A DNA stretch of 39,403 bases from a virus (Duplodnaviria > Caudoviricetes): positions 1-39,403 of the IMG/VR virus record IMGVR_UViG_3300032234_000919. One strand, given 5' to 3'. A program made the position numbers and the translations under genes. Below are positions 10,194-33,466 of the stretch, piece after piece. A model generated the notes under the pieces. It was not told the origin of the DNA, did not search any database, and saw nothing but the letters and a program-made list of their open reading frames with translations. Position 1 is the stretch's first letter, and each line of letters opens with the position of its first letter.

Positions 10194-11216
10194 ATGGTTA
10201 AAAGAAAATCTCGCAAACTCAAATTTTACTTCCGCGTTTATCGCGCAGCGAAAGAAGAGTTAATTTCCCGTGGCTTCAATTTAAAAGGCAAAAACAAGGA
10301 GTTTCGCGCATACTTGCGTGAACAAATTACTCCCAAGTTTGCTGAGAAAAAAAGATTCACCAAGAAGCAATTAGAAAAGGTTATTAATGAAACTTTATCT
10401 GAGTATCAGATAAAAATTGGTGTAACTCCAACTCTACCAAAAGAACCCAAAGGTGATTACATTAACCCTTTGCTTATTCCCTTGCCTTTGGTTTCGGGTA
10501 TTTCGTGGTTTTTGATTGATGATTTTTTAGATTCAGAACTAAGAGCAGAATTAGAAGCAATAGACCCAATTAGAGGATTGAGAGTTGAAATAAATGCGGG
10601 TCAAGCGATGGGGAGTACGGGTATATTTAACTTAAAAGAATATCAATATGATGCTAGTGGGGTGAAAAATATTGTTGAAAATGTTCGTGAGTTCGTAGAG
10701 AATGATTCAACCCCCGAATGGAATGGTCAAATTTTAGTTCGTAAATATGCTAAAGACGATGGGGATGCAGATTCTTATTATTTGCAATTAACTCTTTACA
10801 TCAATGGTCAAGAGATAGCACCATTTAATTCGGGCGAAGAAGCATTTCAGCCTATTCCCGAACAAACGATGGAAGAAAAAAGAGAGCAACGAAGAAAAGC
10901 ATTAAAAATAAAAAAAGAACGTGAAAAAGAGCGTAGACAAAAAAGCGGTCAAAAAGAAAAAAGGATGAGGGAACGTCCTAAGAAAAAAGAAGAAAAAGAA
11001 ACTCCAAAGGAAGAGAAAAAAGAAGCGAAAAAACCATCTGAAAGCAAGGAAGGTTTAGAGAAAATCTTTGAAAGACAAGAGAATTTACTAGCCCAAGCCC
11101 GTAGGGATTATGATGACGGGATTTACAACAAAACCGAATATAAAAAACGAATTTCCGATATTAACAAGTTGATTGAAAAAGCAATAGAGAAATTTGAAAA
11201 AGGTGGAGAAGTATAG
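10194..11216 (+). CDS. Hypothetical protein with basic N-terminus, acidic core and Lys/Glu-rich C-terminus
   Basis: Long ORF heading the replication block. Confidence 0.8.
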   Translation: MVKRKSRKLKFYFRVYRAAKEELISRGFNLKGKNKEFRAYLREQITPKFAEKKRFTKKQLEKVINETLSEYQIKIGVTPTLPKEPKGDYINPLLIPLPLVSGISWFLIDDFLDSELRAELEAIDPIRGLRVEINAGQAMGSTGIFNLKEYQYDASGVKNIVENVREFVENDSTPEWNGQILVRKYAKDDGDADSYYLQLTLYINGQEIAPFNSGEEAFQPIPEQTMEEKREQRRKALKIKKEREKERRQKSGQKEKRMRERPKKKEEKETPKEEKKEAKKPSESKEGLEKIFERQENLLAQARRDYDDGIYNKTEYKKRISDINKLIEKAIEKFEKGGEV

Positions 11217-11283: not shown

Positions 11284-11610
11284 ATGATAAATTTTTCATC
11301 TGAAAACGAGAACAAGATTTACAACTTGCTGATTTCAAACCAAAAGTCAAGAGATAACGATATGTTGTTGGTTGCTTTGTTTTGGAAACAAGAGTTAGGA
11401 GTTAAGGATGTTTCCGAATTGGAAAACATTTCTTCAAGAACACTTTTCCGTAAAATGGTTAATGGTGAAGTTACTCACTTTGAAACCATACGAAGGACAC
11501 GAGCGAAGTTGCAAGAAAAGTATCCCGAAGTTAGGGGTGAAAAATATTTGAAGCGATTACAAAGACAAGACGAATTAAAAGAAGATTTAGGCTATGGAGT
11601 ACGGGAATAA
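11284..11610 (+). CDS. Hypothetical phage protein, possibly DNA-binding
   Basis: RDND..L...W and ETIRRTRAKLQE motifs. Confidence 0.75.
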   Translation: MINFSSENENKIYNLLISNQKSRDNDMLLVALFWKQELGVKDVSELENISSRTLFRKMVNGEVTHFETIRRTRAKLQEKYPEVRGEKYLKRLQRQDELKEDLGYGVRE

Positions 11611-12334
11611 AAAAGATTTACTTGTAATTGAGGAAACTCGATTCAAGGGAGGCAAGGATGCCAAACTACTTATTGAGCGGTTGAAGAAACAGAAAAAAGA
11701 TTTCTACGTGCGTGAAACGAATTTTATTACCATAGTTGTTTGCGATAATATGGAAATGATTTACCCAAATTTAGGGGATAAGCGTTTCCCCCCAAATCAG
11801 TTGTGGCTATTCGGTAGAGTAAAGCAAGAGGCAGAAAACTTTTTACGCAATAACCCCAAGTGGAAAATGCCCAAGAAGTTTCCGACAAACGTAACTAATT
11901 ACAACTATGACGATTCGTTTGGTGATATTACGGGAACTGATATAAACGGAGCATATTGGCAAATCGCATTTAACGAAGGCTACATTTCAAAAAACACTTA
12001 TGACAAAGCAAGTGGCGAAGAGTTCAAACGAACCCGACTTGCTGCATTGGCTATCCTTGGAAGGAATATCGCCTACTCAAAATATTCCAAAGGAGTTATT
12101 GAACCGAAGAAAACTATTTTTCAATTTAATCAATTGGAGGTTCATTTGGTGTACAAGGCTATACGATTTAAGTGTTTTGAGATTATGCAAAGACTTGCTA
12201 AAATGCTAGGTGAAGATTTTGAAGCGTACCGAACTGATTGTATTTACTACAGAGATACTCCAAAGAATCGAGCGAAAGTTCACAAATTTTTAGAAAAGAA
12301 AGGTTTTTCTTACAAACAACTTGTATATGATTAA
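11594..12334 (+). CDS. Miniature family-B DNA polymerase-like protein (palm only)
   Basis: Motif A-like GTDINGAYW; motif C-like YRTDCIYY; degenerate motif B KRTRLAALAILG. Confidence 0.6.
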   Translation: MEYGNKKDLLVIEETRFKGGKDAKLLIERLKKQKKDFYVRETNFITIVVCDNMEMIYPNLGDKRFPPNQLWLFGRVKQEAENFLRNNPKWKMPKKFPTNVTNYNYDDSFGDITGTDINGAYWQIAFNEGYISKNTYDKASGEEFKRTRLAALAILGRNIAYSKYSKGVIEPKKTIFQFNQLEVHLVYKAIRFKCFEIMQRLAKMLGEDFEAYRTDCIYYRDTPKNRAKVHKFLEKKGFSYKQLVYD

Positions 12335-12372: not shown

Positions 12373-12792
12373 ATGAAAACAAAAAGTGTGAAATTGGAAC
12401 TGAGCCCTTTGCGGTGGCAAAAAGTAATTGATTCGGTTACTTCGGATAGTTATGTAAATGAGAGAGTTAACGAAATTCTTTCATCTAACAGAAAACTTTT
12501 CAACCCCAAGGACGAAATATTAGTTGACGGATTTTATTACGCATTTAATGAGTTTGTCGAGGATGGCAAACCATTTGTGACTTTGACCCCTTACAGAATT
12601 AAGCATAGTGTAATGAACAAGAAAAAATATTCTTTCGGCTGCTACAATCGAGTTAGCAACGAATTGAATTTGTTTTTCAAAGGAATGGCTAAAAGCGATA
12701 GCCGTGAACACGCAGTGGTAGTGTACAATTCACTACTAGATTACTGCAAGTCAACCAACCCGAACCTAAAACCATTTGCAATAAAATTATGA
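12373..12792 (+). CDS. Hypothetical protein
   Basis: Follows TAAATTTG at 12343-12350. Confidence 0.7.
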   Translation: MKTKSVKLELSPLRWQKVIDSVTSDSYVNERVNEILSSNRKLFNPKDEILVDGFYYAFNEFVEDGKPFVTLTPYRIKHSVMNKKKYSFGCYNRVSNELNLFFKGMAKSDSREHAVVVYNSLLDYCKSTNPNLKPFAIKL

Positions 12793-13485: not shown

Positions 13486-13746
13486 ATGAAAAGATACAAA
13501 TATTACTTTAATGGCTTAGAAGAAAAGCCAATTAGCATAGAGGCTAGTAGCAAAGAATCTGCTAGGAGAAAGTTAGAAGAGATTTGTAACGATTCTCGAT
13601 ACAAAGACAATGGCTATGCTATTACTAATGTTATTAGAGAAACTACCGAAACTTTGGTAGACGGAGTTTCTGAGAAAAATATAAACGGAGTTGAATTTAT
13701 TTGGAGCAAAAATGGGTGGATTAAAAATATCACAAAGTCTTATTAA
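13486..13746 (+). CDS. Hypothetical protein
   Basis: 86-aa ORF in operon. Confidence 0.65.
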   Translation: MKRYKYYFNGLEEKPISIEASSKESARRKLEEICNDSRYKDNGYAITNVIRETTETLVDGVSEKNINGVEFIWSKNGWIKNITKSY

Positions 13747-14485
13747 GGACTTCGCCAAATACAAGCAAGGGGAAGAATGCGGATTAGTCGTAAAGGCTAA
13801 ATTCGTTGATAAGAAATGGTCTCCCCCAAGTGAGGCACAAAAACACGGAATTTATTTTGAGTATAAGGCTACGGGTTCGCTTCCTAAGAGTGGAGAAACA
13901 CCATCAGCCGAATACGATTCAAAGGGTCGGATGTTGAACCCTTATGCCAATGCCGAAGCGAGTGCAAGTCTGTTTAAAACCCTCATAAAAATTTGGAATA
14001 TAAAGATACTAGAAACATCTTGGTATATGGATGATGGTGTGGCTAATGGAGTAGCGGACTTACTAGTGGAAATTGAAGGTAAGAAGGCTATAATAGACTT
14101 GAAATATAGTGGATTACTAGACGATAAGTGGAACGATTTAGGGTGGCACGAAGACTTTCTATCAGAGAAAGACAAAATACTTATTCAAGGGGTTCACTAC
14201 ACTAAATTAGCGGAAACGATTTTAGAAGAACCCGTTGATTTTTTCTTTTGGGTTTTCAATTCTAAAGACCCAAGGGATGTTCGTATTTTCAAACAAGTAA
14301 ACTCATACGAGCGGTATATAAAACACGAATCAATGATTAGCAATGTTCAATTAGAAATTGAAGAATTAGTTGCAAGTGATTCTTGGATTGCCCGTCCTAG
14401 TCTGAATAGATGCAACAACTGCTATTTGGCTGATAGTTGCCACAAACAACAAATATTACCAACTATTAAAACAATTTATTATTAA
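13712..14485 (+). CDS. PD-(D/E)XK exonuclease, Cas4/AddB-like, with probable Fe-S Cys ligands
   Basis: GVADLL...IIDLKY; Q..HY; an N-terminal Cys plus C-terminal CNNCYLADSC. Confidence 0.8.
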   Translation: MGGLKISQSLIKDFAKYKQGEECGLVVKAKFVDKKWSPPSEAQKHGIYFEYKATGSLPKSGETPSAEYDSKGRMLNPYANAEASASLFKTLIKIWNIKILETSWYMDDGVANGVADLLVEIEGKKAIIDLKYSGLLDDKWNDLGWHEDFLSEKDKILIQGVHYTKLAETILEEPVDFFFWVFNSKDPRDVRIFKQVNSYERYIKHESMISNVQLEIEELVASDSWIARPSLNRCNNCYLADSCHKQQILPTIKTIYY

Positions 14486-14486
14486 T

Positions 14487-14723
14487 ATGTTAGAACACAA
14501 AAAACTATTACCATCGGCTTATTTAGACCCTTTTAAAGTAGATAAAATACAAAGTATTCACATTTTTTTAAACAGAAGCATTTTTACAGATAAAGTTGAA
14601 GTTATCTCTACAATAGAATTTAGGAATGGTAACACAACGGGAAAGCAAAATTTCGATACAGAAACTATTGAAGAGGGTATTAAACAAATGCAACAATTTT
14701 TAAATCAATTAAATAATGGCTAA
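14487..14723 (+). CDS. Hypothetical protein, paralog of 2248-2505
   Basis: DPFKVDKIQSI...FRNGNTTGKQNF. Confidence 0.75.
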   Translation: MLEHKKLLPSAYLDPFKVDKIQSIHIFLNRSIFTDKVEVISTIEFRNGNTTGKQNFDTETIEEGIKQMQQFLNQLNNG

Positions 14724-15285
14724 ACTATTTTTTTACGACTTAGAAACAACGGGTCTGAATTTCAAGACAAATGCAATACACCAAATTTCGGGAATGATTG
14801 TAGTCGATGGGCAAGTGAGAGAACGATTTGAATTTAAGGTACAACCACACTTCGGAGCGATAATAGACGAAGCCGCATTAGCAATAGCGAACAAAACCCA
14901 AGAGGAAGTTTTAGCCTATCCCCCAATTAAACAAGTTTACGCAAAACTTTTTGCGTTGTTCACCAAATATGTAGATAGGTTTGACCGATTTGATAAATAC
15001 ATTTTAGTGGGGTACAACAACTTAAGTTTTGACAACCATTTCTTCCGTGAGTTTGTCACTAAACATTGTGATGATAAATACTATGGGAGTTACTTTTGGA
15101 GCAACTCTATTGATGTTTTTGCATTAGCCTCAGACCATTTACAAAACGAGCGTCATAAGATGTCTGATTTTAAATTACGTAGCGTTGCAAAGCAAGTAGG
15201 AATAGAAGTAGATGAAAGCAAATTGCACGATGCTCAATACGATATTGAACTAACCTATCAAATATATTTAAAAGTAAAAAAATGA
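14716..15285 (+). CDS. DEDDh 3'-5' exonuclease (DnaQ-like)
   Basis: YDLETTG; GYN..FD; HDAQYD. Confidence 0.9.
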   Translation: MAKLFFYDLETTGLNFKTNAIHQISGMIVVDGQVRERFEFKVQPHFGAIIDEAALAIANKTQEEVLAYPPIKQVYAKLFALFTKYVDRFDRFDKYILVGYNNLSFDNHFFREFVTKHCDDKYYGSYFWSNSIDVFALASDHLQNERHKMSDFKLRSVAKQVGIEVDESKLHDAQYDIELTYQIYLKVKK

Positions 15286-15464
15286 AAGCAGAAGAAATTT
15301 TAGATGACCTCTTGTCAAGGCACACTAAACTTCAAGTTAGAAACATTTTAGAATCTAAACTTTTGACTTTAGATACCAAAATGAACAAGTACGGATTTAC
15401 TCCCGAAGACTTGGAAGAAGAAAGAATTTACAAGAAGGCTATTGAATTGCTCAAAACGCGATGA
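15282..15464 (+). CDS. Hypothetical protein
   Basis: ATGA-coupled on both sides. Confidence 0.65.
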   Translation: MKAEEILDDLLSRHTKLQVRNILESKLLTLDTKMNKYGFTPEDLEEERIYKKAIELLKTR

Positions 15465-16228
15465 ACAAGGAAATTTCAACCAAATTATCGAACCAATTGA
15501 GTTTATACGAAACGCAAGTGTTTCGGGAACTTTTATCGGCTCACAACATTAGTAGCACCCAATTCAAACAGATTGTTTTGAGTGAAATTAAGAAGAACGA
15601 AAAGTTGATGGAGGTTTTTATCGTGAACCCAAGCAGTTTGTTTGCCTCTATCATTTTTGCCGCTCAGATAGGATTGATGCCGAGTGAAACTATCGGGCAA
15701 ATCTTTTTAATCCCATTTAAGGGCGTATGTAAACCCGTAATAGGCTACCAAGGATTAGTCACATTACTTTTACGCGATGTTCGTTTAAGAACCATTTCTT
15801 GCGAAGTGGTATGCGAAGGAGATGAATTTGATTATGAGTTAGGATTGACCCCAAAACTCTTTCACAAACCCAAAGACGAACTTCGCAGTAGCGAATCAAT
15901 GACCCATATCTATTGCGTAGCAAACTATGGGGATGGTATAAAGGAATTTAAGGTGATGTCACGCAAAGAAATCAACACGAACATAGAAATGCTCAAGAAC
16001 CCCAACGAACTTTACTACAATGACAAAAAAGACGGCAATATGTGGATGTTAAAGAAGATAGTACTGAAGCAATTGTCTAAGTTGATGAATAAAGACTACT
16101 ATTGCCAATTAGCAATTAAAATGGACGATGCATTAGAGGGCGGTAGAAATATGATTTTAGATGAGAACAATAATCCCATCGTAACCATTGAAGAAAAAAG
16201 AGGAAGTATTTATCAAACTTTATCCTAA
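15461..16228 (+). CDS. recT: RecT-family ssDNA annealing protein
   Basis: AAQIGLMP...FLIPF...IGYQGL...V.EGDEF...M..K.VLK. Confidence 0.85.
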   Translation: MNKEISTKLSNQLSLYETQVFRELLSAHNISSTQFKQIVLSEIKKNEKLMEVFIVNPSSLFASIIFAAQIGLMPSETIGQIFLIPFKGVCKPVIGYQGLVTLLLRDVRLRTISCEVVCEGDEFDYELGLTPKLFHKPKDELRSSESMTHIYCVANYGDGIKEFKVMSRKEINTNIEMLKNPNELYYNDKKDGNMWMLKKIVLKQLSKLMNKDYYCQLAIKMDDALEGGRNMILDENNNPIVTIEEKRGSIYQTLS

Positions 16229-16327: not shown

Positions 16328-16690
16328 TTAATTAGGAAAGTCTATATTCCCAAACACGTAGTAATCAGAACTAGCATACACAGTGGTTAAACTACCCAAT
16401 ATCTCATACCAAAACATTCCGATATTTAGATTATTTAAACCCGCAATAAGCCCCGTAAATGAATTGTACATATTTCCACTCATAGTCATAAAGGTAGGGT
16501 CGGTTGCTTTCTTTACTTGAATACTAAATGTAGGGTTATTAGAAAAGTTTACCCCACTTGTATCCCAAGTGTAAAGTGTATTAGCATTGGCACTAAATCT
16601 ATTAGGGTCTTGTAAACCACCAAATAAAGAAACATTCAAAAGAAAATTTTGAGTGTTGGTTACATTTATATTTATCAGTTTACGAGCCAT
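16328..16690 (-). CDS. Putative virion protein; N-terminus resembles the first strands of the candidate capsid protein
   Basis: ININVTNT....LNVSLFGG versus IIQISNT....NFDVLGS; beta-rich composition. Confidence 0.5.
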   Translation of the reverse strand: MARKLININVTNTQNFLLNVSLFGGLQDPNRFSANANTLYTWDTSGVNFSNNPTFSIQVKKATDPTFMTMSGNMYNSFTGLIAGLNNLNIGMFWYEILGSLTTVYASSDYYVFGNIDFPN

Positions 16691-19600
16691 TATACAATAT
16701 TAAGCACACCCCCATTTGACCATACCGCACCCGCGGGTAAACCCGCACTTGATGTAGGTACGTTTGCTATAACTAATCGGTTAACGTGCCAAGCACAATC
16801 TAAAGCAGAAGTTATACCACAACCATAAATACCCGCATAATTATTTTGGGCTACGTTGAGGTCACCACCTAAAATAACCGAACCATTCGCTTGAGCCGTA
16901 TTACAAAGACCACTCACTACCGTTGCGTAGTTCGCACACGCGGTATTCGATTGACCTCCCAAAATATTGGTATATAAAGCCGATGCCGTATTTAACTTAC
17001 CTCCGACTACAACGGATAATGAAGTGTTTGCGACGTTGCAACAACCACCCCCGATAAATGTATTGTCGGAAGATGCGATGTTACAAAATCCCGCACCAAC
17101 GAAAGCATTGTTTGATGAAGCCGAATTTCTAAGACCCGCACCAACACCCGAATAAACGCAACTCGCTACGTTTAAGAAACCACCACCAATGAATGAAGGA
17201 TTTCCCGATGCCGTGTTTTGGTCTCCACCCGCAACCGCACTTCTACAAGCCGAAGCGATGTTACCACTACCACCACCTACGAAAGACAAACCCCCACTCG
17301 CGTTATTACCACAACCACCTACTACAATAGCAAATGTTGATGTAGCGCAGTTTTGTTGACCACCCACAACTACGGAATCACTACCCGTAGCAAGGTTGTT
17401 GTTTCCTCCACCAATGAAGGCATCAGTACAAGCACAATTGCTAAACCCACCTACTATGGAAGAAAAGTTTCCAAGTGCACGATTTAATTGACCTCCTAAA
17501 ATTCCCGATGCATTTCCTATCGAACAATTTAAACCACCCGCTCCGACAAAAGATACCTCACCACAAGACCTATTGGCATATCCTCCCGATACCGTACTAC
17601 CAATTCCACTTGCAATACTACATCTTCCTCCTAAAGTGGATGAACATTCACCAATGGCACAACTTCTATTTCCTCCTAAAGATATAGAATATGCGGCAGT
17701 TGCTTTTGCATAAAAACCACTTGCCGTAGAATAGTCACAAGTAGCACAACTTCTAATACCACCTAAAACACTACTATGACCACCCGTTGCTTGATTCTCT
17801 TGACCACCAATTACAGTCGAACAATTTCCGCTTGAAATATTAACAAATCCGCCCGATATAGTTGATTGTAATCCACTCGTTGTATTAGAAACACCTCCAC
17901 CAATAAAGGAATCGAGATTAGTAGTAACATTATTACATCCTCCAACAATTGAAGACCTTCTTGCACCCGCTAAATTGAAAGTACCACCAACAACAACCGA
18001 ACACCATTCACAAGCAATATTACCACTACCTCCACCTATAAATTGATGGTTTGCTGGATTTACAAAACCTATTCTATTATTCTCTCCACCAACTATTGCA
18101 CCAAAAATACTTGTTAAAAAAATACAATTATTTACGCCACCCACTATAGAGGAACCATACCCTAAGGCTTTGTTTCCACATCCTCCAACAACACTACTAA
18201 ATACAGATGTAGCGCAGTTAAAATTACCATTTAAAACTGATGACCAAGAGTTAGTAGCACAATTTCTCAAACCATTACCAACATATGCGTAATCAGCACA
18301 AGCATAATTATAACATCCACTTCCTGTAAAAGCATAAATACCACAAACACGATTATATTCACCATTTACAATTGATGTATAATTACCACAAACTGCACCA
18401 AAAAAACTATTACGACAACCATTTCCAACAAAAGAATTTACACCACTCGCTCTATTTTCAAATCCATTTACTATAACAGAATAAGCACCCGATGCTATGT
18501 TTGAATTCCCTCCACCTACAAATGAATTACTTGAACTAGAAGTGTTGTTTGTACCACCACCTAGAAATGAACACGAAGAACTAGAAGTGTTGTTTGTACC
18601 ACCAACAATAACAGATGCATAAGCCGACCCCGTATTATTTGAACATCCACCACCTATGAATCCACCTCTCGATTGATTTACATTACAAAACCCTCCAACA
18701 ATCGTAGCAAAACAAGCCCTATCATTAGTTTGACAAATTAAATTATTATGACCACCTCCAATAAAAGTGCCACAAAAAATTCCTCCTCCAAAACGATTAA
18801 TGCAATTATTAACACCACCTACAATTACTGATGATTGGCTACATCCTACTATCACGTTATTCACTCCACCACCTACAAAAGAACCATATCCACTAGCAAT
18901 GTTTCCACATCCACCTACAACGCTAGAGAATACGGATATAGCACAATTAGATAAACCACCTACTACTCCACTCCAAGTTCCACTTGCGATGTTACATTGA
19001 CCGCCTATTACCGAAGAACACGCTCCACTAGCATTGTTAGATGCTCCGCCTACAACTACAGATGAAGTACCACTTAATACATTGCTTTTTCCACCACCTA
19101 TAAAAGCGTATCCTGCACTAAGAGTATTATCCCTACCTCCAACTAATACACTACAATTAGCAGTAACAGAATTTGTTAAACCACCTCCAATTACACTTCT
19201 ACCACCTGCATTAGTAACAGAAAAACCTGCCCCGACAAATGATTGTTGATTAGTCGCGCTATTACCCCTACCACCACCTATGAATGAATAATCACCACTA
19301 GCAGTATTCGCACAACCGCCCACAACCGCACTACAATTTCCCGTGGATGAGTTGCCTTGTCCACCCACTACTAAACTACCAATTCCACAAGCAGCATTAT
19401 TAGTACCACCTCCAACAAATGATGCATACCCCGTTGACCTATTTCCACAACCACCAACTATTGATGAGAATATAGATGCCGAGCAATTATTCTGACCACC
19501 TAAAGAATTTGAAAACGCCCCAATAGCACTATTGCCAACTCCACAACGAATTGTAGAATTAGCCCCACTACCTAAAATATAAAGGGATGAAACTCCCGCT

Positions 19601-19728
19601 AATATATCAGTTATACAACCTTGTTTGGTAGTTTGTGCATCGCTATCCCAAATGGGCATAGTAAAGCATCCTTTTATTTGCGCACTCGATAATAAAGGTA
19701 ATGCGCCCGTGGTTTTGTTAGTACTCAT
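16690..19728 (-). CDS. 1012-aa Gly/Cys/Asn-rich repeat fibre (YadA-head-like repeats)
   Basis: Dozens of ~15-aa S.(I/V)xGG..N repeats; C-terminal PTSSAGLPAGAVWSNGGVL. Confidence 0.75.
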   Translation of the reverse strand: MSTNKTTGALPLLSSAQIKGCFTMPIWDSDAQTTKQGCITDILAGVSSLYILGSGANSTIRCGVGNSAIGAFSNSLGGQNNCSASIFSSIVGGCGNRSTGYASFVGGGTNNAACGIGSLVVGGQGNSSTGNCSAVVGGCANTASGDYSFIGGGRGNSATNQQSFVGAGFSVTNAGGRSVIGGGLTNSVTANCSVLVGGRDNTLSAGYAFIGGGKSNVLSGTSSVVVGGASNNASGACSSVIGGQCNIASGTWSGVVGGLSNCAISVFSSVVGGCGNIASGYGSFVGGGVNNVIVGCSQSSVIVGGVNNCINRFGGGIFCGTFIGGGHNNLICQTNDRACFATIVGGFCNVNQSRGGFIGGGCSNNTGSAYASVIVGGTNNTSSSSCSFLGGGTNNTSSSSNSFVGGGNSNIASGAYSVIVNGFENRASGVNSFVGNGCRNSFFGAVCGNYTSIVNGEYNRVCGIYAFTGSGCYNYACADYAYVGNGLRNCATNSWSSVLNGNFNCATSVFSSVVGGCGNKALGYGSSIVGGVNNCIFLTSIFGAIVGGENNRIGFVNPANHQFIGGGSGNIACEWCSVVVGGTFNLAGARRSSIVGGCNNVTTNLDSFIGGGVSNTTSGLQSTISGGFVNISSGNCSTVIGGQENQATGGHSSVLGGIRSCATCDYSTASGFYAKATAAYSISLGGNRSCAIGECSSTLGGRCSIASGIGSTVSGGYANRSCGEVSFVGAGGLNCSIGNASGILGGQLNRALGNFSSIVGGFSNCACTDAFIGGGNNNLATGSDSVVVGGQQNCATSTFAIVVGGCGNNASGGLSFVGGGSGNIASACRSAVAGGDQNTASGNPSFIGGGFLNVASCVYSGVGAGLRNSASSNNAFVGAGFCNIASSDNTFIGGGCCNVANTSLSVVVGGKLNTASALYTNILGGQSNTACANYATVVSGLCNTAQANGSVILGGDLNVAQNNYAGIYGCGITSALDCAWHVNRLVIANVPTSSAGLPAGAVWSNGGVLNIV
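18533..18604. repeat. 27-bp exact repeat at 45-bp spacing within the fibre gene
   Basis: GAACTAGAAGTGTTGTTTGTACCACCA at 18533-18559 and 18578-18604. Confidence 0.85.
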
Positions 19729-21862: not shown

Positions 21863-22048
21863 CTACTTTATAGGTAATTTAGACCAAATAATTTCGTGTC
21901 CAAAGTATAAAATTGGCTTCCAAAGCAAATCTGTTATGCTCATATAGATACCAACATCAATTCTGTTAGTAGTAATATAAGCAATAAAAAATGTGGAAAG
22001 TGAGCCAACTATTCTATAAGTAATCGTCTTATAAATCGCCCTTTTCAT
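21863..22048 (-). CDS. DUF2061-like small membrane protein
   Basis: KTITYRIVG...K.ILYF.HE..W; start ATG 22048. Confidence 0.75.
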   Translation of the reverse strand: MKRAIYKTITYRIVGSLSTFFIAYITTNRIDVGIYMSITDLLWKPILYFGHEIIWSKLPIK

Positions 22049-22391
22049 TTTTAAGTTGTTCGCGAATTTTAGTCCCACTAATTTCAGCAATTTCCGATGG
22101 TGGAATATGTTCTATTACCTCATATCCTACATCTCGACCATAGTTGAAACTCTCTATATCGGGAATAATAATTACTTTAACCATACCCTCATTAATTAAT
22201 GGATATAGTTGTTTCATAATGTTCAAACGAACTTCTTCCGCACTATAAGGGTTCTTTTCGTCTTTTTCAACATCACGAACCGCAATAAGTACGGGAATAC
22301 CTTGATTTAAATTTTGGTCTATTAGCCAACGATGACCACTATGCCATACTTGCCAACGACCTACATACATTGCATATTTTTTCTTTTCCAT
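22029..22391 (-). CDS. HxGH nucleotidyltransferase (cytidylyltransferase-like)
   Basis: GRWQVWHSGH and ISGTKIR. Confidence 0.8.
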   Translation of the reverse strand: MEKKKYAMYVGRWQVWHSGHRWLIDQNLNQGIPVLIAVRDVEKDEKNPYSAEEVRLNIMKQLYPLINEGMVKVIIIPDIESFNYGRDVGYEVIEHIPPSEIAEISGTKIREQLKNEKGDL

Positions 22392-22411
22392 ATTTTTACA
22401 TTTTACATTTG

Positions 22412-22879
22412 TTACAAATTCAAAAAACTAACAATCTTTCGTAAACATTCCATTTCGGTAAATTCGGAAGTATTTACTGATAAAAGATTTTCTTCGGCTA
22501 TTTCGGTTGGTTCTTCAAAATCAACGCAATGAAAAGCCTCTCTACCCCTCTTTTCTTTTACATCGTAGGTAAGGTAAATCCACTTTACTTGCTTTCCCAA
22601 CGACTCAATATATTGCCTTGCTTCCGCATAAGGAAACACAAAAGAAATTAGGACGTAGCGATTGAGTGAACATTCATAATATGCCATTTCACTAGCACGT
22701 TTAAGGTTTCTCAATCGCCCCTTCCTAGAATAGTCTTGGTCTTTAAACAACAACCGAAATTTATCGTTATCAATAAAATGCGCTGATGGTTTGTTAGCCT
22801 TTGATTTAAGGTGTCCAAATAACAACTTACTCAAAGTTGATTTTCCACTATGGGGTTGTCCAAAGAAAACTATTATCAT
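22412..22879 (-). CDS. cysC: Adenylylsulfate (APS) kinase-like protein
   Basis: GQPHSGKST; D.DKFR; DYSRKGR..N; FEEP. Confidence 0.8.
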   Translation of the reverse strand: MIIVFFGQPHSGKSTLSKLLFGHLKSKANKPSAHFIDNDKFRLLFKDQDYSRKGRLRNLKRASEMAYYECSLNRYVLISFVFPYAEARQYIESLGKQVKWIYLTYDVKEKRGREAFHCVDFEEPTEIAEENLLSVNTSEFTEMECLRKIVSFLNL

Positions 22880-23313
22880 TATTCTTCATCTTTAATTACT
22901 TCCATATCCGCTTGAGGTTCTTCATTACCTACTTCGGTTTCGGGAGTTTCTTCTACTTGGGAAACTTTTTCTGTTTCTTCAGTTTCCTCAGACTTTTCTT
23001 CAACTTCTTGGTTAGAAATAATTCCAACAATTGCATTCTCGTTTTGAACAACATCAAAAGATTTTCCTACAAATAAGAAATGGTGTTTATATAAGCCATT
23101 AGGACTTATACCGCTCCAAGTCAAAACAATAGCACCATCGCTATTAATAGCATCTACTAAAAAAACTTCTGCATTTACAATTGCTTGTAAGTTTTCATCT
23201 TCTTCGACTTCAGCAATTTCACCGATGGTGAAAATATATTTCTTATCGGAGTTTTCGGGATAGTTTTCGTTACTCCTAACTAAAACTACTTTATTATCTT
23301 TTAAGTTTATCAT
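22879..23313 (-). CDS. Acidic hypothetical protein
   Basis: Glu-rich tail; in operon. Confidence 0.7.
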   Translation of the reverse strand: MINLKDNKVVLVRSNENYPENSDKKYIFTIGEIAEVEEDENLQAIVNAEVFLVDAINSDGAIVLTWSGISPNGLYKHHFLFVGKSFDVVQNENAIVGIISNQEVEEKSEETEETEKVSQVEETPETEVGNEEPQADMEVIKDEE

Positions 23314-24131
23314 TTTGTGTATCTAAAATAGTCAAAAAACCATTTGTAAGTATTCCAAATCCAATCAGTAACATCTCGACCTAAAACTTGTTTAGCAGTG
23401 CTAGGAACGACTTCTAACTTAGTGCGAATAGTATGGTCTCCAAAGATTCCATAAACTTCGTCTGATTCTTGAGTAATTTGCTCAATATTATCCCAATCGT
23501 GTTGGAAGTAAGGCAACCCTAAATACTCATAAATACGATGCATTTCAGTATCGGGGTTTATGCACAAGTCTTCAAACTTTACAAAAAGTATTTTTGAATC
23601 GTAGCCTTGTCGCATAATTTCTGAAAGCCTTTCAATAGCCATACCAACGGGTTGTCCGTTTGCCCAAACATCAATTCGTTTTGGGGTACTAGTACCAATG
23701 AGTTGAGCGTGGTCTACCATATTGTTTCCCAAATGCTGATTTTTACGGAAATTCTTTTCCATAGAGCAATAAACATCTCTCAAATCGCGAACCATACAAA
23801 TAATCTTAGGTTCGGGATAAAAGAAATTTAAAAAGTCTCTATGTATTCCGTAAGCACGGCTTTTTTCCATTACAAACTTTTTGTCCGTAATGGCATTGAA
23901 AAAGCCAAACATACCATTGTGGCAAAAAGCCTTCCACCCCTTTTCCATAGTTTCTGTATCTTGGGCTTTAAATTCGGGGCTATTTCTATAATTGGCTTGG
24001 GCAGCATACAACAACTCAAAAACTCCACTAGTAGGAGTAACGTAAAAGTCGGGATTTTGAGCCATAATGTTTTGCAACAACGTGCTACCACTACGAGGCA
24101 AACTCGAATTGAAAAATATTTTATCTACCAT
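23310..24131 (-). CDS. PAPS-dependent sulfotransferase
   Basis: 5'-PSB SLPRSGSTLL; 3'-PB VRDLRDVYCS; KFEDL..NP. Confidence 0.9.
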   Translation of the reverse strand: MVDKIFFNSSLPRSGSTLLQNIMAQNPDFYVTPTSGVFELLYAAQANYRNSPEFKAQDTETMEKGWKAFCHNGMFGFFNAITDKKFVMEKSRAYGIHRDFLNFFYPEPKIICMVRDLRDVYCSMEKNFRKNQHLGNNMVDHAQLIGTSTPKRIDVWANGQPVGMAIERLSEIMRQGYDSKILFVKFEDLCINPDTEMHRIYEYLGLPYFQHDWDNIEQITQESDEVYGIFGDHTIRTKLEVVPSTAKQVLGRDVTDWIWNTYKWFFDYFRYTK

Positions 24132-25503: not shown

Positions 25504-26010
25504 CTAAGCATAGTATTCATCGTAAAGAGATTTTAACTCTCTTCCACTTGTACTATATCTTACGGGCACTTTTGTAAATCCGAAAATAGTTTTGATTCTG
25601 AAGTTTCCAACAAAATCCATTGGTATATCTTTCAAGGTTAAAGCATTTGCAGCGATTGTTCTCCATCCACTAATTAAACTCTTAGGGTCAAAATTAATGG
25701 TGAACGAAATAGGTGATTTTGAATTAGGTGCAATAGTGGTTTCTTTGGCTTCGACTATAGAACCCAATTTAACTCCACCCGTAAACGCTAAAATATCAAT
25801 ATCCTTAATGGTTGCAGTGAAGTTTGATTTGTTTATAATTTCCAAAGTAACTACACCTTCAGCAGTTGGTATTAATTTGTTTATTCTAAATCCAATTACG
25901 TTAAAGTCCCATTGGTTCGCTAACAATACGTTGCGATATACATAACGCGCAATAGCCGCACCCGCAAGTGTAGCACCCGTAATCAAAAGAATTTTGTTTG
26001 CTTTCATCAA
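25504..26010 (-). CDS. Membrane-anchored LEA_2/WHy-like protein
   Basis: N-terminal TM; LEIINKSNF...IKDID...G..LG...TIAPN beta-sandwich pattern. Confidence 0.55.
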   Translation of the reverse strand: MMKANKILLITGATLAGAAIARYVYRNVLLANQWDFNVIGFRINKLIPTAEGVVTLEIINKSNFTATIKDIDILAFTGGVKLGSIVEAKETTIAPNSKSPISFTINFDPKSLISGWRTIAANALTLKDIPMDFVGNFRIKTIFGFTKVPVRYSTSGRELKSLYDEYYA

Positions 26011-26270
26011 TTAAATAATAATTTGTAACCTACATATAAAGCACCCGCTGCTAAAAAATAATACACTATTGAATTAGGTACTCCCAAAACAACGGGCTCT
26101 TGTGCATTTAAACGCTCTACTCTACCACGAACTTCATCTACGCTAGATTGAACTTCGGGGGAAAAAGTTTCTTTGAATTTTAAACCAAAAGTTTTTGCTT
26201 GAGCAACATCGGCTTCAAGTTTCAAACCAATATCCTCATTGCCATCAGCATAAAAAAAGTTGTCTCTCAT
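26007..26270 (-). CDS. Tail-anchored virion membrane protein with ADG motif
   Basis: FFYADG near the N-terminus; C-terminal TM. Confidence 0.7.
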   Translation of the reverse strand: MRDNFFYADGNEDIGLKLEADVAQAKTFGLKFKETFSPEVQSSVDEVRGRVERLNAQEPVVLGVPNSIVYYFLAAGALYVGYKLLFN

Positions 26271-26271
26271 A

Positions 26272-27027
26272 TTAATTTCTTCTAGTTACAAAATAACCTA
26301 CAATTAATACTGCAACACCAATACCTACGTACAATAATGTTTTGTTGGATTTACCACCACCTAATGCACCAAGTACATCAGACCCACTACTACCCGTTGG
26401 GGGTGCTACGGGAGAACCCGTTTCAGCCGCTCTTTTAGCCTCTTCCATAGCAAGTCTTTTTTTCTCTTCTGCTAATTTTTTTTCTTCTTCTGCTTTCACT
26501 TGCTCTTCTTTCAACTTAATTATGTTGTCAAGTTCTTTGCTCAGTTGATTTAACGCTTCAATGTTTGCTCTAGCCTTGGAAGAACGTCTGAAAATTTCTA
26601 TTTCTTCTTTGTTTAAAACCAAAGTTGGCAACATAGCACTTAATACACCTATTCCAAAAGTTTTCGCCCTTACATTTCCCCTTTCTTGGTCTTTTTGATT
26701 TTCCCAAGTTATTTTGTCTGCATCAAACTTTTTTCTTATGGTTTGAAGTTCGTCCAAACTAAGTTTAATATTATATGGGAAAGCGGATTTATAACTATTC
26801 CTAGCAGCATCAATTTGTGAACCATAAGGAGCGGTAAATGCATCCCATTTTTTATCTGAATTGTCGAATGCTCTACGAAGAATTTTAGTCGCATCACTTT
26901 GACGTTGATTAAAATCTCCTAAACTTGCATCTCCATCAGCCCCTAAAAAGTTATCGGTTTCTAGCATCATAAGATTATCTCTCGATGCTACTTGAAAACC
27001 ATCGGCATTAGCCCAAGTCATTTTCAT
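26272..27027 (-). CDS. Tail-anchored coiled-coil protein with two ADG motifs
   Basis: WANADG, FLGADG; C-terminal TM + RR. Confidence 0.75.
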   Translation of the reverse strand: MKMTWANADGFQVASRDNLMMLETDNFLGADGDASLGDFNQRQSDATKILRRAFDNSDKKWDAFTAPYGSQIDAARNSYKSAFPYNIKLSLDELQTIRKKFDADKITWENQKDQERGNVRAKTFGIGVLSAMLPTLVLNKEEIEIFRRSSKARANIEALNQLSKELDNIIKLKEEQVKAEEEKKLAEEKKRLAMEEAKRAAETGSPVAPPTGSSGSDVLGALGGGKSNKTLLYVGIGVAVLIVGYFVTRRN

Positions 27028-27560
27028 TTTTTGTATCTCCTATAAATAAAAAATCCTAAAACCCCAACGGCAACAACAACACCACCAATAAGCACGTACA
27101 TACCTACTTTGCTATCACTTTTTGCCCCTAGAATTTTATTTAATTGTGATTGGAAATCTTCTTCTGCTTTTTGCGCAAACTTTAACTCACATTGAGATTT
27201 ATCGTAGAATGCTTTTAACTCATTTAAAGCACGTGTACGTCCATCTATGTAGGCTTGTAGTTGTTCTTTTTTTGCTTTCTTAGCCCCAACCATCGCCCTT
27301 TTATCAGCGGTAATTGCATCTTCAATTGCAGCAATAGTAGCCTTTAATACTTCACAATTAGATTTATCTTCTTCCTTCAATCCTCCAATTGACCATCCAT
27401 AGGCTTCATTTTGCTTAGAGCCATCAGCATAAGAATAATCAACATTGGGGAAACCAAATTCCACTTTGTCGGAAAAACTATATTCGTCACTACGGGGGCT
27501 TTGCTCACCCGTAAATCCGAAAGACATATCGTCATTTTTGAAAAAAACGTCTATTTCCAT
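27024..27560 (-). CDS. Tail-anchored coiled-coil protein with ADG motif
   Basis: YSYADG; C-terminal TM + RRYKK. Confidence 0.75.
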   Translation of the reverse strand: MEIDVFFKNDDMSFGFTGEQSPRSDEYSFSDKVEFGFPNVDYSYADGSKQNEAYGWSIGGLKEEDKSNCEVLKATIAAIEDAITADKRAMVGAKKAKKEQLQAYIDGRTRALNELKAFYDKSQCELKFAQKAEEDFQSQLNKILGAKSDSKVGMYVLIGGVVVAVGVLGFFIYRRYKK

Positions 27561-27561
27561 T

Positions 27562-27981
27562 TTATTTAAGTTGGGTTATATAATAATCAATTTGTGATTC
27601 GTACTTTAAAGGTAACAATCTATCTCCAAAAACAAAAACAATTGCTCTCATTGTCCTTCTACCTAACAAACCATCAACTTTCAATTCGGGCAAATCTATT
27701 TTTTTTGCCTTTATATATTCATTTAATTTAGTTTGAAGAGTTTCGACTTTGGTCTTAAAAGCAGCATCTGTTTTTGCTAATTCAGTTGGGTTAAAAGAAG
27801 TTGAAAAATATTTATCGTAAGATTCTAAATCTTTATTTAAAATATCTTCTTCAGTATTACCCGCGCCTAAAATTTTCTTTTTTAGGTCTTCGTCTTTTTT
27901 CTTTTTAACTATTAAAACAATAGCGGTGATAACTACACCTACTCCTAAGACGGAAAGTATTATTTTAGTGTTCTTTTTCAT
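27562..27981 (-). CDS. Membrane protein with a peptidoglycan-binding domain
   Basis: N-terminal TM; V..LQ..LN...LKVDGLLGRRT..AI (PG_binding_1 pattern). Confidence 0.7.
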   Translation of the reverse strand: MKKNTKIILSVLGVGVVITAIVLIVKKKKDEDLKKKILGAGNTEEDILNKDLESYDKYFSTSFNPTELAKTDAAFKTKVETLQTKLNEYIKAKKIDLPELKVDGLLGRRTMRAIVFVFGDRLLPLKYESQIDYYITQLK

Positions 27982-27983
27982 TT

Positions 27984-28490
27984 TTAAAATTTAATTACAT
28001 CTTCTCTTACCCAAGGATAATATTGTATAAATGAAGTATTTCTTGTTAAGAAAGATTTTTTACTTTGAAGTTCATCGTATAAGTTTCTATCCAATTTAAA
28101 TTTCACCCATTTATAAGGTCTTTTAGTGTTTGGGTTCATCATAGAGCCCGAATCTAATGCTACTTCAACTGCTTCACCTAATAACTTACCCTCTCCTTCA
28201 ACAAAATCAAATAAGTTGTTTATAAACCCATCGTTTACATAAGGTTGAGTTCTTAAATTTGTTGTAGATGTTTTAGTTAAGATTTTTTTGTTCTTAATTA
28301 CTTTTGTGGCTTCGGATGGTGATAATTTCATAATTGAATCCACTTCGGGTATAATTACTTTCTGTTTTTCAGTATCTTCCGATTCTTCACCACCAAATGT
28401 AACATTAGGCTTGTCCGATTTTCGGAAAGCAAATAAAACTATACCACCTAGTATAGCAATTGGAATAAGATATGGCAAATACTTTTTCAT
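27984..28490 (-). CDS. Membrane protein with an SH3b-like domain
   Basis: N-terminal TM; NLRTQP...WVKF...WVREDVI. Confidence 0.5.
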   Translation of the reverse strand: MKKYLPYLIPIAILGGIVLFAFRKSDKPNVTFGGEESEDTEKQKVIIPEVDSIMKLSPSEATKVIKNKKILTKTSTTNLRTQPYVNDGFINNLFDFVEGEGKLLGEAVEVALDSGSMMNPNTKRPYKWVKFKLDRNLYDELQSKKSFLTRNTSFIQYYPWVREDVIKF

Positions 28491-28666
28491 TATATTTTAG
28501 ATGCATCAACTTTTTTCCAAAGTGCTTCAAAGTCCTTGTCTGCTTTCGATTCTATTTCTTTTTTTAGAGCCGAAGCATCACTAGTTCTTTTTACCACCAA
28601 TATAATTAATCCTATTACAACCGCAACAGAACTATATAGCAATATTTTTTTAGTATTGTCCGTCAT
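28490..28666 (-). CDS. 58-aa membrane protein
   Basis: Hand-translated MTDNTKKILLYSSVAVVIGLIILVVKR...; abuts both neighbours. Confidence 0.75.
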   Translation of the reverse strand: MTDNTKKILLYSSVAVVIGLIILVVKRTSDASALKKEIESKADKDFEALWKKVDASKI

Positions 28667-29121
28667 TATTGTACTTTTTGATATACTCTATATCCAATGT
28701 AACCAACACTACCTAATACTAGTGCGTAAATACCTATTTTTATTACATTCACGCCTTTACCATCAAATATATCCGCAATAGATTGAGCAACATTAGTTAC
28801 TACTTCTGATGCACTATCTACAACGTCAAATGCAGAACCGCTTGGCTTTAAAACAAGTTTAAATAAACCTGCATTTTTATAAGGGTCTAAGCCCTCTTTG
28901 GAAACGTAAGCACGAAAATCAGAATCAAATGTTCTGCAATCGTAATGAGATGCAAATTCAGTACCACGTGAATAAGCGAACTCCCACATATATTTTGCAC
29001 GTTCTGCTCCGAATTTGGTCTTTAATAGTTTATGCCATTGTACCCAATCGCCACAATTCCAAGAACTATCTCTACCCCATTCATCGTAGTCGGGAACGCT
29101 ATTCCAAGTTGTAACTGCCAT
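28666..29121 (-). CDS. Tail-anchored membrane protein
   Basis: Trp-rich N-terminal domain; C-terminal TM. Confidence 0.75.
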   Translation of the reverse strand: MAVTTWNSVPDYDEWGRDSSWNCGDWVQWHKLLKTKFGAERAKYMWEFAYSRGTEFASHYDCRTFDSDFRAYVSKEGLDPYKNAGLFKLVLKPSGSAFDVVDSASEVVTNVAQSIADIFDGKGVNVIKIGIYALVLGSVGYIGYRVYQKVQ

Positions 29122-29122
29122 A

Positions 29123-29905
29123 TTATTCTATTACTATATTCATCTTTTCAAAGTCATTGATAAACTTGTTAATCAAGTCGTAACGAGCCTTATTAAGTTG
29201 AGTTGGTTTTTCTTTAAAAGTTTCTAAAAATGCTTGATAAGCCTCAATTCTTGGGTATCCTAAACCCAAATAAATTAATAAGCCATTCAAGTCTGCTTCC
29301 ATTTCATCATCAATTTTTTCATTCAAGTAAAAATGAGAAAACTCGTGTAATAAAATTGCCATCCTCATAGGGATAGTAAATTTCAAAAAGGCTTTCTTAC
29401 TTACTTGAATAGTACCCGTTCTTCTTCCAATACGTGCGGGAGTTGTTAACTCCACCCCATTTTCTTTTCTGATAGTAGAAACTAGATTTATGAAAAAATT
29501 GCCGTCATCGCTCCGATAAGTCTTGTTTACATCCAAATCTGATACATTAAAACAAAATTTTTGTGAAAAATTCACAAAATTCCGAATCATCGAATTTCCA
29601 ATATCATTCTCATCAATTCTACGCTCTAATGCCGACTTCTTTACAGAAATCAATTCATAACCTACATTACTATTTCCTAAAGTTCCATTGGGAGTATTGG
29701 AAACTTCTATTTTTGATACTTCGGGAGAAAGAGGCATACGAACAAATAGAGTTTCTTCACCTTGGATAGTTTTCCATCGCTCAGTGAACTTTCTAAATGG
29801 GTTTGATGCATCTGAAACCGTGAAGTATAATTTCTGAGGTTTATCGCTTCGTACTTTTACAACTAGTGTAATCGGTGCATAGTTCGTGACAACTTTTTCT
29901 ATCAT
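29123..29905 (-). CDS. Zincin metalloprotease (candidate maturation protease)
   Basis: ILLHEFSH followed by EMEAD (third-ligand pattern). Confidence 0.75.
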   Translation of the reverse strand: MIEKVVTNYAPITLVVKVRSDKPQKLYFTVSDASNPFRKFTERWKTIQGEETLFVRMPLSPEVSKIEVSNTPNGTLGNSNVGYELISVKKSALERRIDENDIGNSMIRNFVNFSQKFCFNVSDLDVNKTYRSDDGNFFINLVSTIRKENGVELTTPARIGRRTGTIQVSKKAFLKFTIPMRMAILLHEFSHFYLNEKIDDEMEADLNGLLIYLGLGYPRIEAYQAFLETFKEKPTQLNKARYDLINKFINDFEKMNIVIE

Positions 29906-30114
29906 TGACCCGCCCTCCTAACATCTTCGGGAGTACTATTAACTTGTACACTGCCCGATTTAATTTTAGATAAAGCCCTATCAATAGCATCATCGGAGTC
30001 ATTATCCGCGTCCAAAGGTTTTTTGGATGGGTTAAGACTTCCCCTATTAGCATAGATAAGCAATGCTATTAGAGCGATTAAGCCATAGGTCTTTATTTGT
30101 TTGTTAGTTAGCAC
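29902..30114 (-). CDS. Small membrane protein
   Basis: N-terminal TM. Confidence 0.7.
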   Translation of the reverse strand: MLTNKQIKTYGLIALIALLIYANRGSLNPSKKPLDADNDSDDAIDRALSKIKSGSVQVNSTPEDVRRAGQ

Positions 30115-30379
30115 CTTTTTTATACATTCTATAAATTAAGATTCCACCAATTACTAAGACCCCAACAAATAGTAAATTTTTCCCGATAATGCTACCGATT
30201 TGTAAATTTTCTTTTATCTGTTGAGTTGGTTCTAGTTCATCCCCTCCGTCTGCATTGTTAAATTCTTCTTGTGCCTTCACATTAGGAATAAAAACGCCTT
30301 TGGATTTTTCTCTTTCAATCCACTCACGAAATGGTAATGTACTTCCACTCTCTCTATATAATTGATTTGCACTCAACAT
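30104..30379 (-). CDS. Tail-anchored protein with ADG motif
   Basis: FNNADG; C-terminal TM + KK. Confidence 0.75.
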   Translation of the reverse strand: MLSANQLYRESGSTLPFREWIEREKSKGVFIPNVKAQEEFNNADGGDELEPTQQIKENLQIGSIIGKNLLFVGVLVIGGILIYRMYKKGAN

Positions 30380-30380
30380 A

Positions 30381-30890
30381 TTAATTTTTGCGAATATCGC
30401 TCAAAAATAATTCTTTTCCGTAACCCGAAAATTTCAAAATCACTTTATCCCCCAAACCGCTTGTAGCAGATGATGGTAAAGTCATTGTTCCCATACCCGT
30501 ATCTGTAGCACCACTTGGTATTACAACACTACCCGAAGTTGGAGTTGGTACATAAACACCACCCGTTGAAGTTGGAGTTGGAGGTGGCAATAAAATACCA
30601 CTATCCTTCAAAATCTTGTCAGCCGTTGCAGTACTACCCGCTGAAATAGGTGAAGATGCTCCTTCTTTTGCAGCAGTTGCTCCACTAGGAGGAGTAACGG
30701 GCATTGAAGAAATAGTTACACTTACGGGAGTTGATGGAGTAACGGGGCTAGGAGGCAAAATTATTGTTCCTCCGCCTCCACCGCCTCCACCACCTTGAGT
30801 AGTGCTTTCGGGTTTTTTCTTATATCTATTGTAAAGAAGTATTGCCGCAACGGCAACACCTCCATACAATAACAAATTGTTATTTGCCAT
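30381..30890 (-). CDS. Membrane protein with a poly-Gly, Pro/Ser/Thr-rich (mucin-like) ectodomain
   Basis: N-terminal TM, G9 run, P/S/T tracts; TATCTTTG at 30895-30902. Confidence 0.75.
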   Translation of the reverse strand: MANNNLLLYGGVAVAAILLYNRYKKKPESTTQGGGGGGGGGTIILPPSPVTPSTPVSVTISSMPVTPPSGATAAKEGASSPISAGSTATADKILKDSGILLPPPTPTSTGGVYVPTPTSGSVVIPSGATDTGMGTMTLPSSATSGLGDKVILKFSGYGKELFLSDIRKN

Positions 30891-30907
30891 ACTTCAAAGA
30901 TAAATAA

Positions 30908-31024
30908 TTATTTATTACCCTCTGTAGTCGTAGTGGTAGCCGTTGGTTTTGGCTTCTTGAAAACGAAATACAAAACACCCGCCACAACGGCAAGAGTTAA
31001 GATAGTTTTTGTTGTTTTGTTCAT
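30908..31024 (-). CDS. 38-aa membrane peptide
   Basis: Hand-translated MNKTTKTILTLAVVAGVLYFVFKKPKPTATTTTTEGNK. Confidence 0.7.
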   Translation of the reverse strand: MNKTTKTILTLAVVAGVLYFVFKKPKPTATTTTTEGNK

Positions 31025-31035
31025 AATTTTATAAA

Positions 31036-31221
31036 TTAAAATGGTTGTTTTTTGTAAAGTTGGTCATCGAAAGTAATTTCATCTTGTGTGAAATTAGCAA
31101 ATCCATCGGGCTGAGGATTTCCATTAGTAGCGGAATCCAAAACATCGTCTTTTTTTAAAGACTTAATTATTAGCACCGCTGCCAATATCCCTAGTCCGTA
31201 GTATATGTATTCTTTTTTCAT
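31036..31221 (-). CDS. Small membrane protein
   Basis: N-terminal TM. Confidence 0.7.
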   Translation of the reverse strand: MKKEYIYYGLGILAAVLIIKSLKKDDVLDSATNGNPQPDGFANFTQDEITFDDQLYKKQPF

Positions 31222-31647: not shown

Positions 31648-31650
31648 ATT

Positions 31651-32666: not shown

Positions 32667-32692
32667 TTTATTTTCTTTTTTGTGTTATAAAT

Positions 32693-32727
32693 AAAAAAAG
32701 GGGAGGGCGAAACCACCCACCCCTTTC
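32693..32727 (-). terminator. Terminator after the candidate capsid gene
   Basis: AAAGGGG.GGG/CCC.CCCCTTT stem followed by a T-run. Confidence 0.8.
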
Positions 32728-32745
32728 TTATGGTTAAAAGTTGGA

Positions 32746-33444: not shown

Positions 33445-33466
33445 AATTTTTTGTTTTTAAATTGTT

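Follow-up and report, generated by a model that had tools for sequence, protein, structure and literature searches.

A predicted miniature family-B polymerase core and its constant upstream partner, tentatively a terminal-protein primase for the linear genome ends of large phages

Evaluating a 39,403-nucleotide stretch of phage DNA (hereafter the window), we found that a 246-aa protein encoded at 11594–12334 (+) belongs to a large and conserved family of proteins of about 250 aa that is without annotation, and that its predicted fold amounts to the palm and fingers of a family B DNA polymerase, its gene lying behind a constant partner gene. To summarize its possible biology, we interpret this core, likely drawn from a protein-primed ancestor, as a terminal-protein primase that would patch the ends of linear genomes while a bacterial replication fork copies the bulk, a tentative reading that we favour at somewhat less than an even chance. 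The relatives that carry the family are linear phages of 68–146 kb. The window, a fragment that is 52% complete, lacks its genome ends.

The open reading frame is real and begins with ATG, and the two motifs that an earlier note on this DNA had read as polymerase motifs A and C lie within it, with DINGAYW at residues 116–122 (11939–11959, +) and YRTDCIYY at residues 212–219 (12227–12250, +). A word-indexed search (E ≤ 1e-3) revealed 90 homologues, almost every one 220–290 aa long, and an exhaustive profile search returned 1,334 cluster representatives at E ≤ 0.001 (526 at 1e-10), the longest among the best 150 of these being 373 aa. From the best 150 of the 1,334 profile matches we aligned 119 proteins of 215–320 aa, query included, and removed four rows that were frameshifted or came in two pieces (P0098, P0105, P0137, P0208), leaving 115 diverse sequences. 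Conservation of both catalytic Asp residues, which the earlier note had marked for checking, proved complete, with D116 and D215 the sole invariant columns at 18% mean column identity; when the four removed rows are kept, D116 is found in 119/119 and D215 in 118/119. The steric-gate position (Y121 in the window) is Tyr in 105 sequences and Phe in 10, and an aromatic residue in 115/115 points to dNTP use. Motif B (K145-x2-R-L-x5-LG; 12026–12061, +, with the K145 codon at 12026–12028) is indeed degenerate, as it had first appeared: the Lys is kept in 113 of the 115, Asn replaces L149 in only 35 to give the canonical K-x3-N (Leu stands there in 69), and the family, compared with the canonical K-x3-N-x2-YG, has no Tyr before the Gly. 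Motif C departs from DTDS in that its first Asp is replaced, mostly by Lys (53), Arg (22) or Asn (10) among the 115, and its Ser mostly by Cys. Motif A reads DVNSAYW or DINSAYW in 37 of 69 near members, for comparison with DVNSLYP in phi29 and DVNSMYP in PRD1.

Structure prediction and fold searching, also proposed earlier as a check, support a predicted family-B palm and fingers, albeit at middling scores. The AlphaFold (AF2) model of the 246-aa protein (pLDDT 90.9, pTM 0.80) drew family-B chains or HSV UL8 in all of the top 8 rows of the VIA wide fold search (Z 7.1–8.1; next row 6.1) and in all of the top 24 rows of a second look (Z up to 8.9), where a Z of about 8 is middling only. Most of these matches cover only model residues ~66–246, and those to phi29 polymerase and UL8 extend to the N-terminal part as well, such that phi29 polymerase (2pyj_A) matches 223 of 246 residues (Z 8.0, rmsd 6.0; model 11–246 on chain 53–489). 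Foldseek against the PDB gave no match at E ≤ 0.001, and its weak matches mix reverse transcriptases and family B polymerases. Taking the motif A likeness and the phi29 fold match together, descent from a protein-primed family B polymerase is likely, and the protein is a core derived from a family-B or protein-primed polymerase, not a complete member of either.

The domain make-up modifies the first impression that the protein has no room for an exonuclease domain, thumb or TPR inserts. There is no active exonuclease domain, but a remnant of one persists at residues ~1–90, since in structure these align with the phi29 exonuclease domain over its second half. Across the family only 77–156 residues precede motif A, the structural match begins at phi29 residue 53, past ExoI, and none of the ExoI–III carboxylates is conserved, the best-kept acidic positions before motif A reaching 56/115 and 68/115. 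The thumb is absent as supposed, given that the tail after the motif C Asp has a median of 44 residues (range 26–97) versus 117 in phi29 and 123 in PRD1, and that the match stops at phi29 residue 489, before the thumb. TPR1 is missing too, with 27–43 aa from motif A to motif B versus 134 in phi29 and 120 in PRD1. A TPR2-like insert, by contrast, may be retained, because the stretch from motif B to motif C (65–76 aa, versus 75 in phi29 and 90 in PRD1) holds a predicted beta-hairpin at 159–177, in which Gly167 is found in 96/115.

Annotation pipelines miss the family because Pfam, PHROGs and NCBIfam hold no model for it: the 246-aa protein has no Pfam family (including no match to PF03175) and no NCBIfam family, and PHROGs yielded only one weak match to an unknown family (E 0.006). 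Sequence-level matches were likewise lacking among PDB sequences and, by tblastn, in 50,697 GenBank phages, and hhalign of the family against phi29 polymerase gave a probability of 0.3%. A scan of the records for PF03175 was silent (0/30), as was its control, which makes it uninformative. An Atlas lead pointed to protein-primed PolB (score 0.86, with that family on 10% of members), and a search for fused longer forms of 551–2000 aa found none, which is weak evidence. Neither the family nor the phage group is described in the titles and abstract openings returned by a full-text literature search, most subscription papers lying outside that scope.

A protein that has lost its thumb, its exonuclease and the first Asp of motif C, and that has UL8 (Z 8.0–8.2) among its best fold matches, could instead be a nucleotidyltransferase outside replication (for protein nucleotidylation, or for a template-free oligonucleotide or anti-defence signal) or a non-catalytic scaffold resembling UL8, which is catalytically dead and about 750 aa long. 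We consider this very unlikely, as a dead scaffold would not be expected to retain both Asp residues and the Lys of motif B so strictly, the steric-gate residue has been preserved, and the gene is core (13/13 whole records), unlike counter-defence genes, which are mostly sporadic. Both UL8 and the mininucleovirus ‘divergent family B DNA polymerase’ (290 aa, in the cited part of PMC6960288) are PolB-derived folds among the best matches here, at sequence identities of 4–11%, and mininucleoviruses, unlike the phages here, also encode a full PolB. In a separate search of viral models, giant and crustacean virus PolB-like proteins of 268–378 aa and a 315-aa model (E 5.7e-6) were among the best matches, such that other miniature PolB families may exist.

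Turning to gene neighbourhoods, the most constant feature is the 340-aa gene upstream (10194–11216, +), whose family precedes the polymerase in 64/64 viral loci and lies within 52 bp of it in 60/64 (63 IMG/VR loci plus the window, a redundant set with 53 unique proteins). We took 80 further loci from metagenomes, 39 of which had too little upstream DNA to score, and found the partner upstream in 39 of the 41 scorable ones (37 by rule and 2 just outside it), the exceptions being L151 and L191, the latter with an intervening integrase-like ORF. The obligate partner is therefore the 10194 gene. The 108-aa gene at 11284–11610 (+) is not an obligate part: its family occurs in 30/64 loci and falls between the pair only in the window.

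The partner possesses a basic helical N-terminus (23 K/R versus 8 D/E), an acidic alpha/beta middle (10 K/R versus 22 D/E) with T142 and R165 invariant in 40/40 and Y195 present in 36/40, and a C-terminal helical hairpin. This acidic-domain pattern is like that of the phi29 terminal protein and unlike that of PRD1. No sequence or family match was detected for the partner, Foldseek gave no viral match at E ≤ 0.001 and VIA only generic helical hairpins (residues 277–339), so that a terminal-protein role rests on position and charge. At its very C-terminus lies FEKGGEV (11193–11213, +), a GG motif that ends the partner in 39/53 unique proteins versus 35/1,460 other ORFs and that recurs many times, in the same form, in large multidomain proteins of the same phages, one of which bears ART-PolyVal. 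Written as [FYM]-x-x-G-G, it is repeated up to at least 12 times in large ORFs of G006, G012, G013, G016 and G018 (e.g., L109:2921–7081). Large multidomain proteins of this kind are probably packaged and injected. If the GG-motif proteins here are packaged, the partner would be made early and bear a tag for the virion, which fits the expected look of a terminal protein, and we regard it as a candidate terminal protein.

An obligate partner would also suit a true replicase, either a split holoenzyme or a minimal one, with thumb, processivity and proofreading supplied by the partner, by the 139-aa protein encoded downstream (12373–12792, +; no family match) or by DnaQ, and no other polymerase-like gene was found in these genomes. 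In the same direction, two members of the polymerase family (P0096, P0103) have N-terminal extensions with a weak likeness to the C-terminal hairpin of the partner (scores of 16.0 and 13.7 bits, where the best of 1,195 shuffles reached 9.5 bits); as a hint of fusion we rejected this as weak, with hhalign at 1–2% and unextended members reaching 12 bits via an internal motif. The earlier note had seen a stand-alone DnaQ about 2.4 kb downstream and had proposed a split or minimal polymerase. The DnaQ-like gene (14716–15285, +; PF00929, E 1e-14) does start 2,382 bp past the polymerase stop, and the miniature PolB-like reading stands insofar as both catalytic Asp residues are kept, but DnaQ as the other half does not: no homologue clustered with it in the flanks (≤10 kb) of the 63 related loci, and among whole relatives it is missing from 8/12 and, in the other 4, sits on the other arm, far from the polymerase gene. 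DnaQ as the partner is thus not supported. Further, the conserved 139-aa gene is present in 49/64 loci and absent from 15/64, near relatives, which encode no DnaB (0/20 records) and among which G016 gave no primase or helicase match in 93 proteins, still keep an initiator gene, which points to the host replisome, and a core without thumb or proofreading would be an unlikely copier of 70–146 kb, so we judge a replicase to be unlikely. DnaQ does lie downstream in the distant members L150 and L151, in which no partner was seen upstream (L150 has only 810 bp upstream). These two represent a distant subfamily (L150:811–2419, L151:10001–13408), L151 with the canonical K-x3-N, and may put this core to another use.

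The same block encodes a RecE-like PD-(D/E)XK exonuclease-like protein (13691–14485, +) and a RecT annealing protein (15461–16228, +), each in 50/64 loci and both in 13/13 whole records, and DnaB lies further along in distant loci. Such an arrangement fits a gap-filling or DNA-primer polymerase for recombination-dependent replication with the partner as a DNA-binding cofactor. This we judge distinctly unlikely, in that the partner adjoins the polymerase whereas several small variable genes lie between it and the RecE/RecT genes. Such a reading would also name no system that maintains the inverted-repeat ends, and would leave the partner's GG motif unexplained.

Evaluating genome ends across the relatives, we found 5/30 records classed as inverted terminal repeats (ITRs) and 25/30 as ‘linear’, with 5 further records linear. 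Whole records (n = 12, 68–101 kb) possess ITRs in 8/12, comprising exact repeats at both ends in 5 (123–653 bp, probably cut at an assembly junction in four cases) and 3 in which the repeat at one end has its match somewhat inward of the other (ITRs of ~489, 905 and 998 bp); no ITR was seen in the remaining 4, whose ends are possibly incomplete. Four lake-water assemblies stop at positions 1, 4, 12 and 84 of the G001 end, a comparison of contigs only, and the G001 record may itself derive from two of these runs. In one lake-water assembly the ITR forms a separate contig continuing into both arms. A hairpin-ended linear phage of the N15 type was considered and rejected: the protelomerase family PF16684 was found in 0/22 records (the control in 1/14), and no fold-back or strand-change joint was seen at the G001 end in contigs of the four runs. 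The last 150 nt of the phage ends fold modestly (z −2.6 and −1.8). Separately, an 11-bp unit, telomere-like or part of an ITR, is repeated in tandem and in inverted orientation at two contig ends, L278:1–142 and the far terminus of L284 (G036:C9, 132 kb).

To connect these ends to a mode of replication, we assessed the genomes for replication genes. An initiator gene (PF09524) was found in 22/36 records and 13/13 near-complete ones, the window, as an incomplete fragment, being without it; three of three such proteins tested match phrog_428 ‘replication initiation protein’ (E ~1e-34), and NCBIfam (TIGR02220) describes the family as of unknown function. Distant relatives (records up to 146 kb) encode a full DnaB within the polymerase's gene block, a few genes further downstream, in 4/4 loci. 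The family-B polymerase model PF00136 matched none of 23 records, and the 93 proteins of G016 gave no primase, helicase or polymerase match. The initiator or DnaB genes point to a bacterial fork. Iterons within the initiator gene exceeded shuffles by more than 1 in 0/12, and an origin was not located thereby. A strand-skew test for outward forks (pooled slope +0.22 ± 0.06, 10 relatives) failed its control and was rejected, because the same sign came from phi29 (+0.42 ± 0.30) and PRD1 (+0.14 ± 0.14), both of which begin replication at the termini.

The same chemistry with other timing has to be weighed here, namely that the pair primes each terminus and hands the primer to an inward DnaB/Pol III fork, with no internal origin. 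All evidence from the pair and the ITRs would fit equally well, and so would an initiator gene without iterons. DnaB travels along the displaced strand in the 5' to 3' direction, a polarity suited to a start at the end, and the 5' strands of the ITRs are G-rich (skew +0.34, +0.52, +0.55 and +0.14), as expected if they are displaced. However, phi29 and PRD1, which start at their ends, have a C-rich 5' strand, opposite to the ITRs of the relatives, which weakens the skew argument, and lambda O-like initiators, of which the one here is core (13/13), normally open an internal origin. We see this hand-off as unlikely. The strongly G-rich ITRs (+0.34 to +0.55) are those at L064:1–489, L096:1–653 and the right end of L085.

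The earlier note had also raised a nucleotidyltransferase that synthesizes primers or primes on protein, and of these options the protein-priming version is the one that genomic context favours. End patching is the reading we retain, since a fork of bacterial type leaves linear ends unfinished and the searches turned up no hairpin machinery, so that the constant pair most simply fills the gap. In this scheme the initiator, together with the conserved gene that follows it (DnaB in distant relatives), would load a host DnaG/Pol III fork at an internal origin, and the fork would, through the end-replication problem, leave 3' overhangs in the ITRs. The basic N-terminus of the partner would then bind the end and its acidic middle would offer a Thr, Tyr or Ser hydroxyl (T142, Y195 and S172 are the candidates), to which D116 and D215, judging by sequence, would link a dNMP with metal ions and then extend it by a few bases, with neither proofreading nor processivity. 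Host polymerase and ligase would close the gap, and the partner would stay on the 5' end and enter the virion. Against this scheme stand the absence of TPR1, which binds the protein primer in known enzymes according to the cited part of PMC4889955, the partner's lack of detected relatives, the iteron search that located no origin, the whole records in which no ITR was seen, and the two distant members that show no partner upstream and sit beside DnaQ.

Classical protein-primed systems provide the closest comparison for the enzyme. With phi29 gp2/gp3 and PRD1 P1/P8 (PF03175) the phages here share palm and fingers, a DVNS-type motif A, linear ITR genomes and a gene order in which the terminal protein gene, or here the partner, precedes the polymerase gene. 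They differ in that the phi29 and PRD1 polymerases are 553–572 aa, whereas the 246-aa protein is without active exonuclease, TPR1 or thumb, and in that the genomes here reach 68–146 kb, include an initiator or DnaB gene and encode a partner without detectable kinship to known terminal proteins.

For the proposed logic, the closer analogy is Tap/Tpg of Streptomyces, in which Tap is about three times larger than the 246-aa protein. Tap puts a 13-nt oligonucleotide on the terminal protein to patch the ends, and the cited part of PMC4513846 gives it no DNA polymerase motif. By analogy, the phages here would share internal replication by a host fork, a two-gene operon and a short oligonucleotide on a basic terminal protein; in contrast to Tap/Tpg, the enzyme is a recognisable PolB core, resides in a virus and faces ends that fold only modestly. 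Sphaerolipoviridae (SH1, PH1, HHIV-2, HCIV-1) are likewise linear with ITRs of several hundred bp and, in the cited parts of PMC12643093 and PMC3622292, no canonical polymerase, and end patching has been proposed for these polymerase-less viruses (PMC3622292, cited part). They are tailless and membrane-containing, as the phages here probably are, yet archaeal, ~30 kb and with demonstrated terminal proteins, whereas ours is a candidate. Profiles of the polymerase and partner found no match among SH1 ORFs.

Beyond replication, we assessed the phage group (window plus G001–G044) for its structural genes. A putative capsid protein (232 aa) and a P-loop packaging-type ATPase (281 aa) are encoded at 32746–34585 (−) and conserved in 13/13 records; the capsid candidate has no PDB sequence match and the ATPase candidate's matches are confined to the P-loop. 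Given no terminase, portal or head matches (a single weak terminase P-loop match had E 1.5e-4) and many membrane-anchored proteins, we infer a tailless, jelly-roll architecture, and these phages are probably tailless and membrane-containing. The group looks unclassified, with capsid, ATPase and most core structural genes lacking a Pfam or PHROG match. Genome bins point to no single host: five matches name five unrelated taxa, and the 132-kb contig in a Sediminibacterium bin has phage-type gene order throughout. In L048, L050 and L053 the polymerase-bearing terminal block is inverted relative to the structural genes.

Several other features of the window merit description. Six structural or membrane proteins at 26007–33444 (−) share an A-D-G motif (FLNADG, FLGADG, FNNADG, YSYADG, WANADG, FFYADG), possibly a maturation or assembly signal, and a core HEXXH protein (29123–29905) lies close to them. 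A 1012-aa Gly/Cys/Asn-rich protein with 15-residue repeats and no family match (16690–19728, −) is probably a spike or fibre, and consecutive cytidylyltransferase-like, APS-kinase-like and sulfotransferase genes (22029–24131, −) suggest a phage sulfation module. A GIY-YIG/NUMOD3 homing endonuclease gene (34549–35304, −) stands immediately upstream of the ATPase gene.

As to what this means, protein-primed replication, which in classical systems needs no helicase and is confined to genomes below 50 kb (cited part of PMC4889955), and fork-based replication are treated as separate toolkits, and the phages here appear to carry parts of both. Our corresponding scenario, favoured with a little less than even confidence, is that a widespread group of large tailless freshwater phages escaped the <50-kb limit by trimming a phi29-type polymerase to a 250-aa terminal-protein primase and leaving bulk synthesis to a bacterial fork; the protein-primed PolB module would then persist in altered form, and the replication strategy is possibly new. 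Within the parts of the papers compared here (PMC4513846, PMC3622292), end patching has so far been demonstrated only for Streptomyces Tap, and the pair, if the reading is true, would offer a two-gene, small-protein system for testing its viral counterpart. A further consequence would be that a family-B core needs neither TPR1 nor thumb to prime on protein, and a 250-aa tool for covalent protein-DNA linking would become available. Such phages would then follow a hybrid replication strategy, with their ends patched by a PolB core that would rank among the smallest active family-B enzymes.
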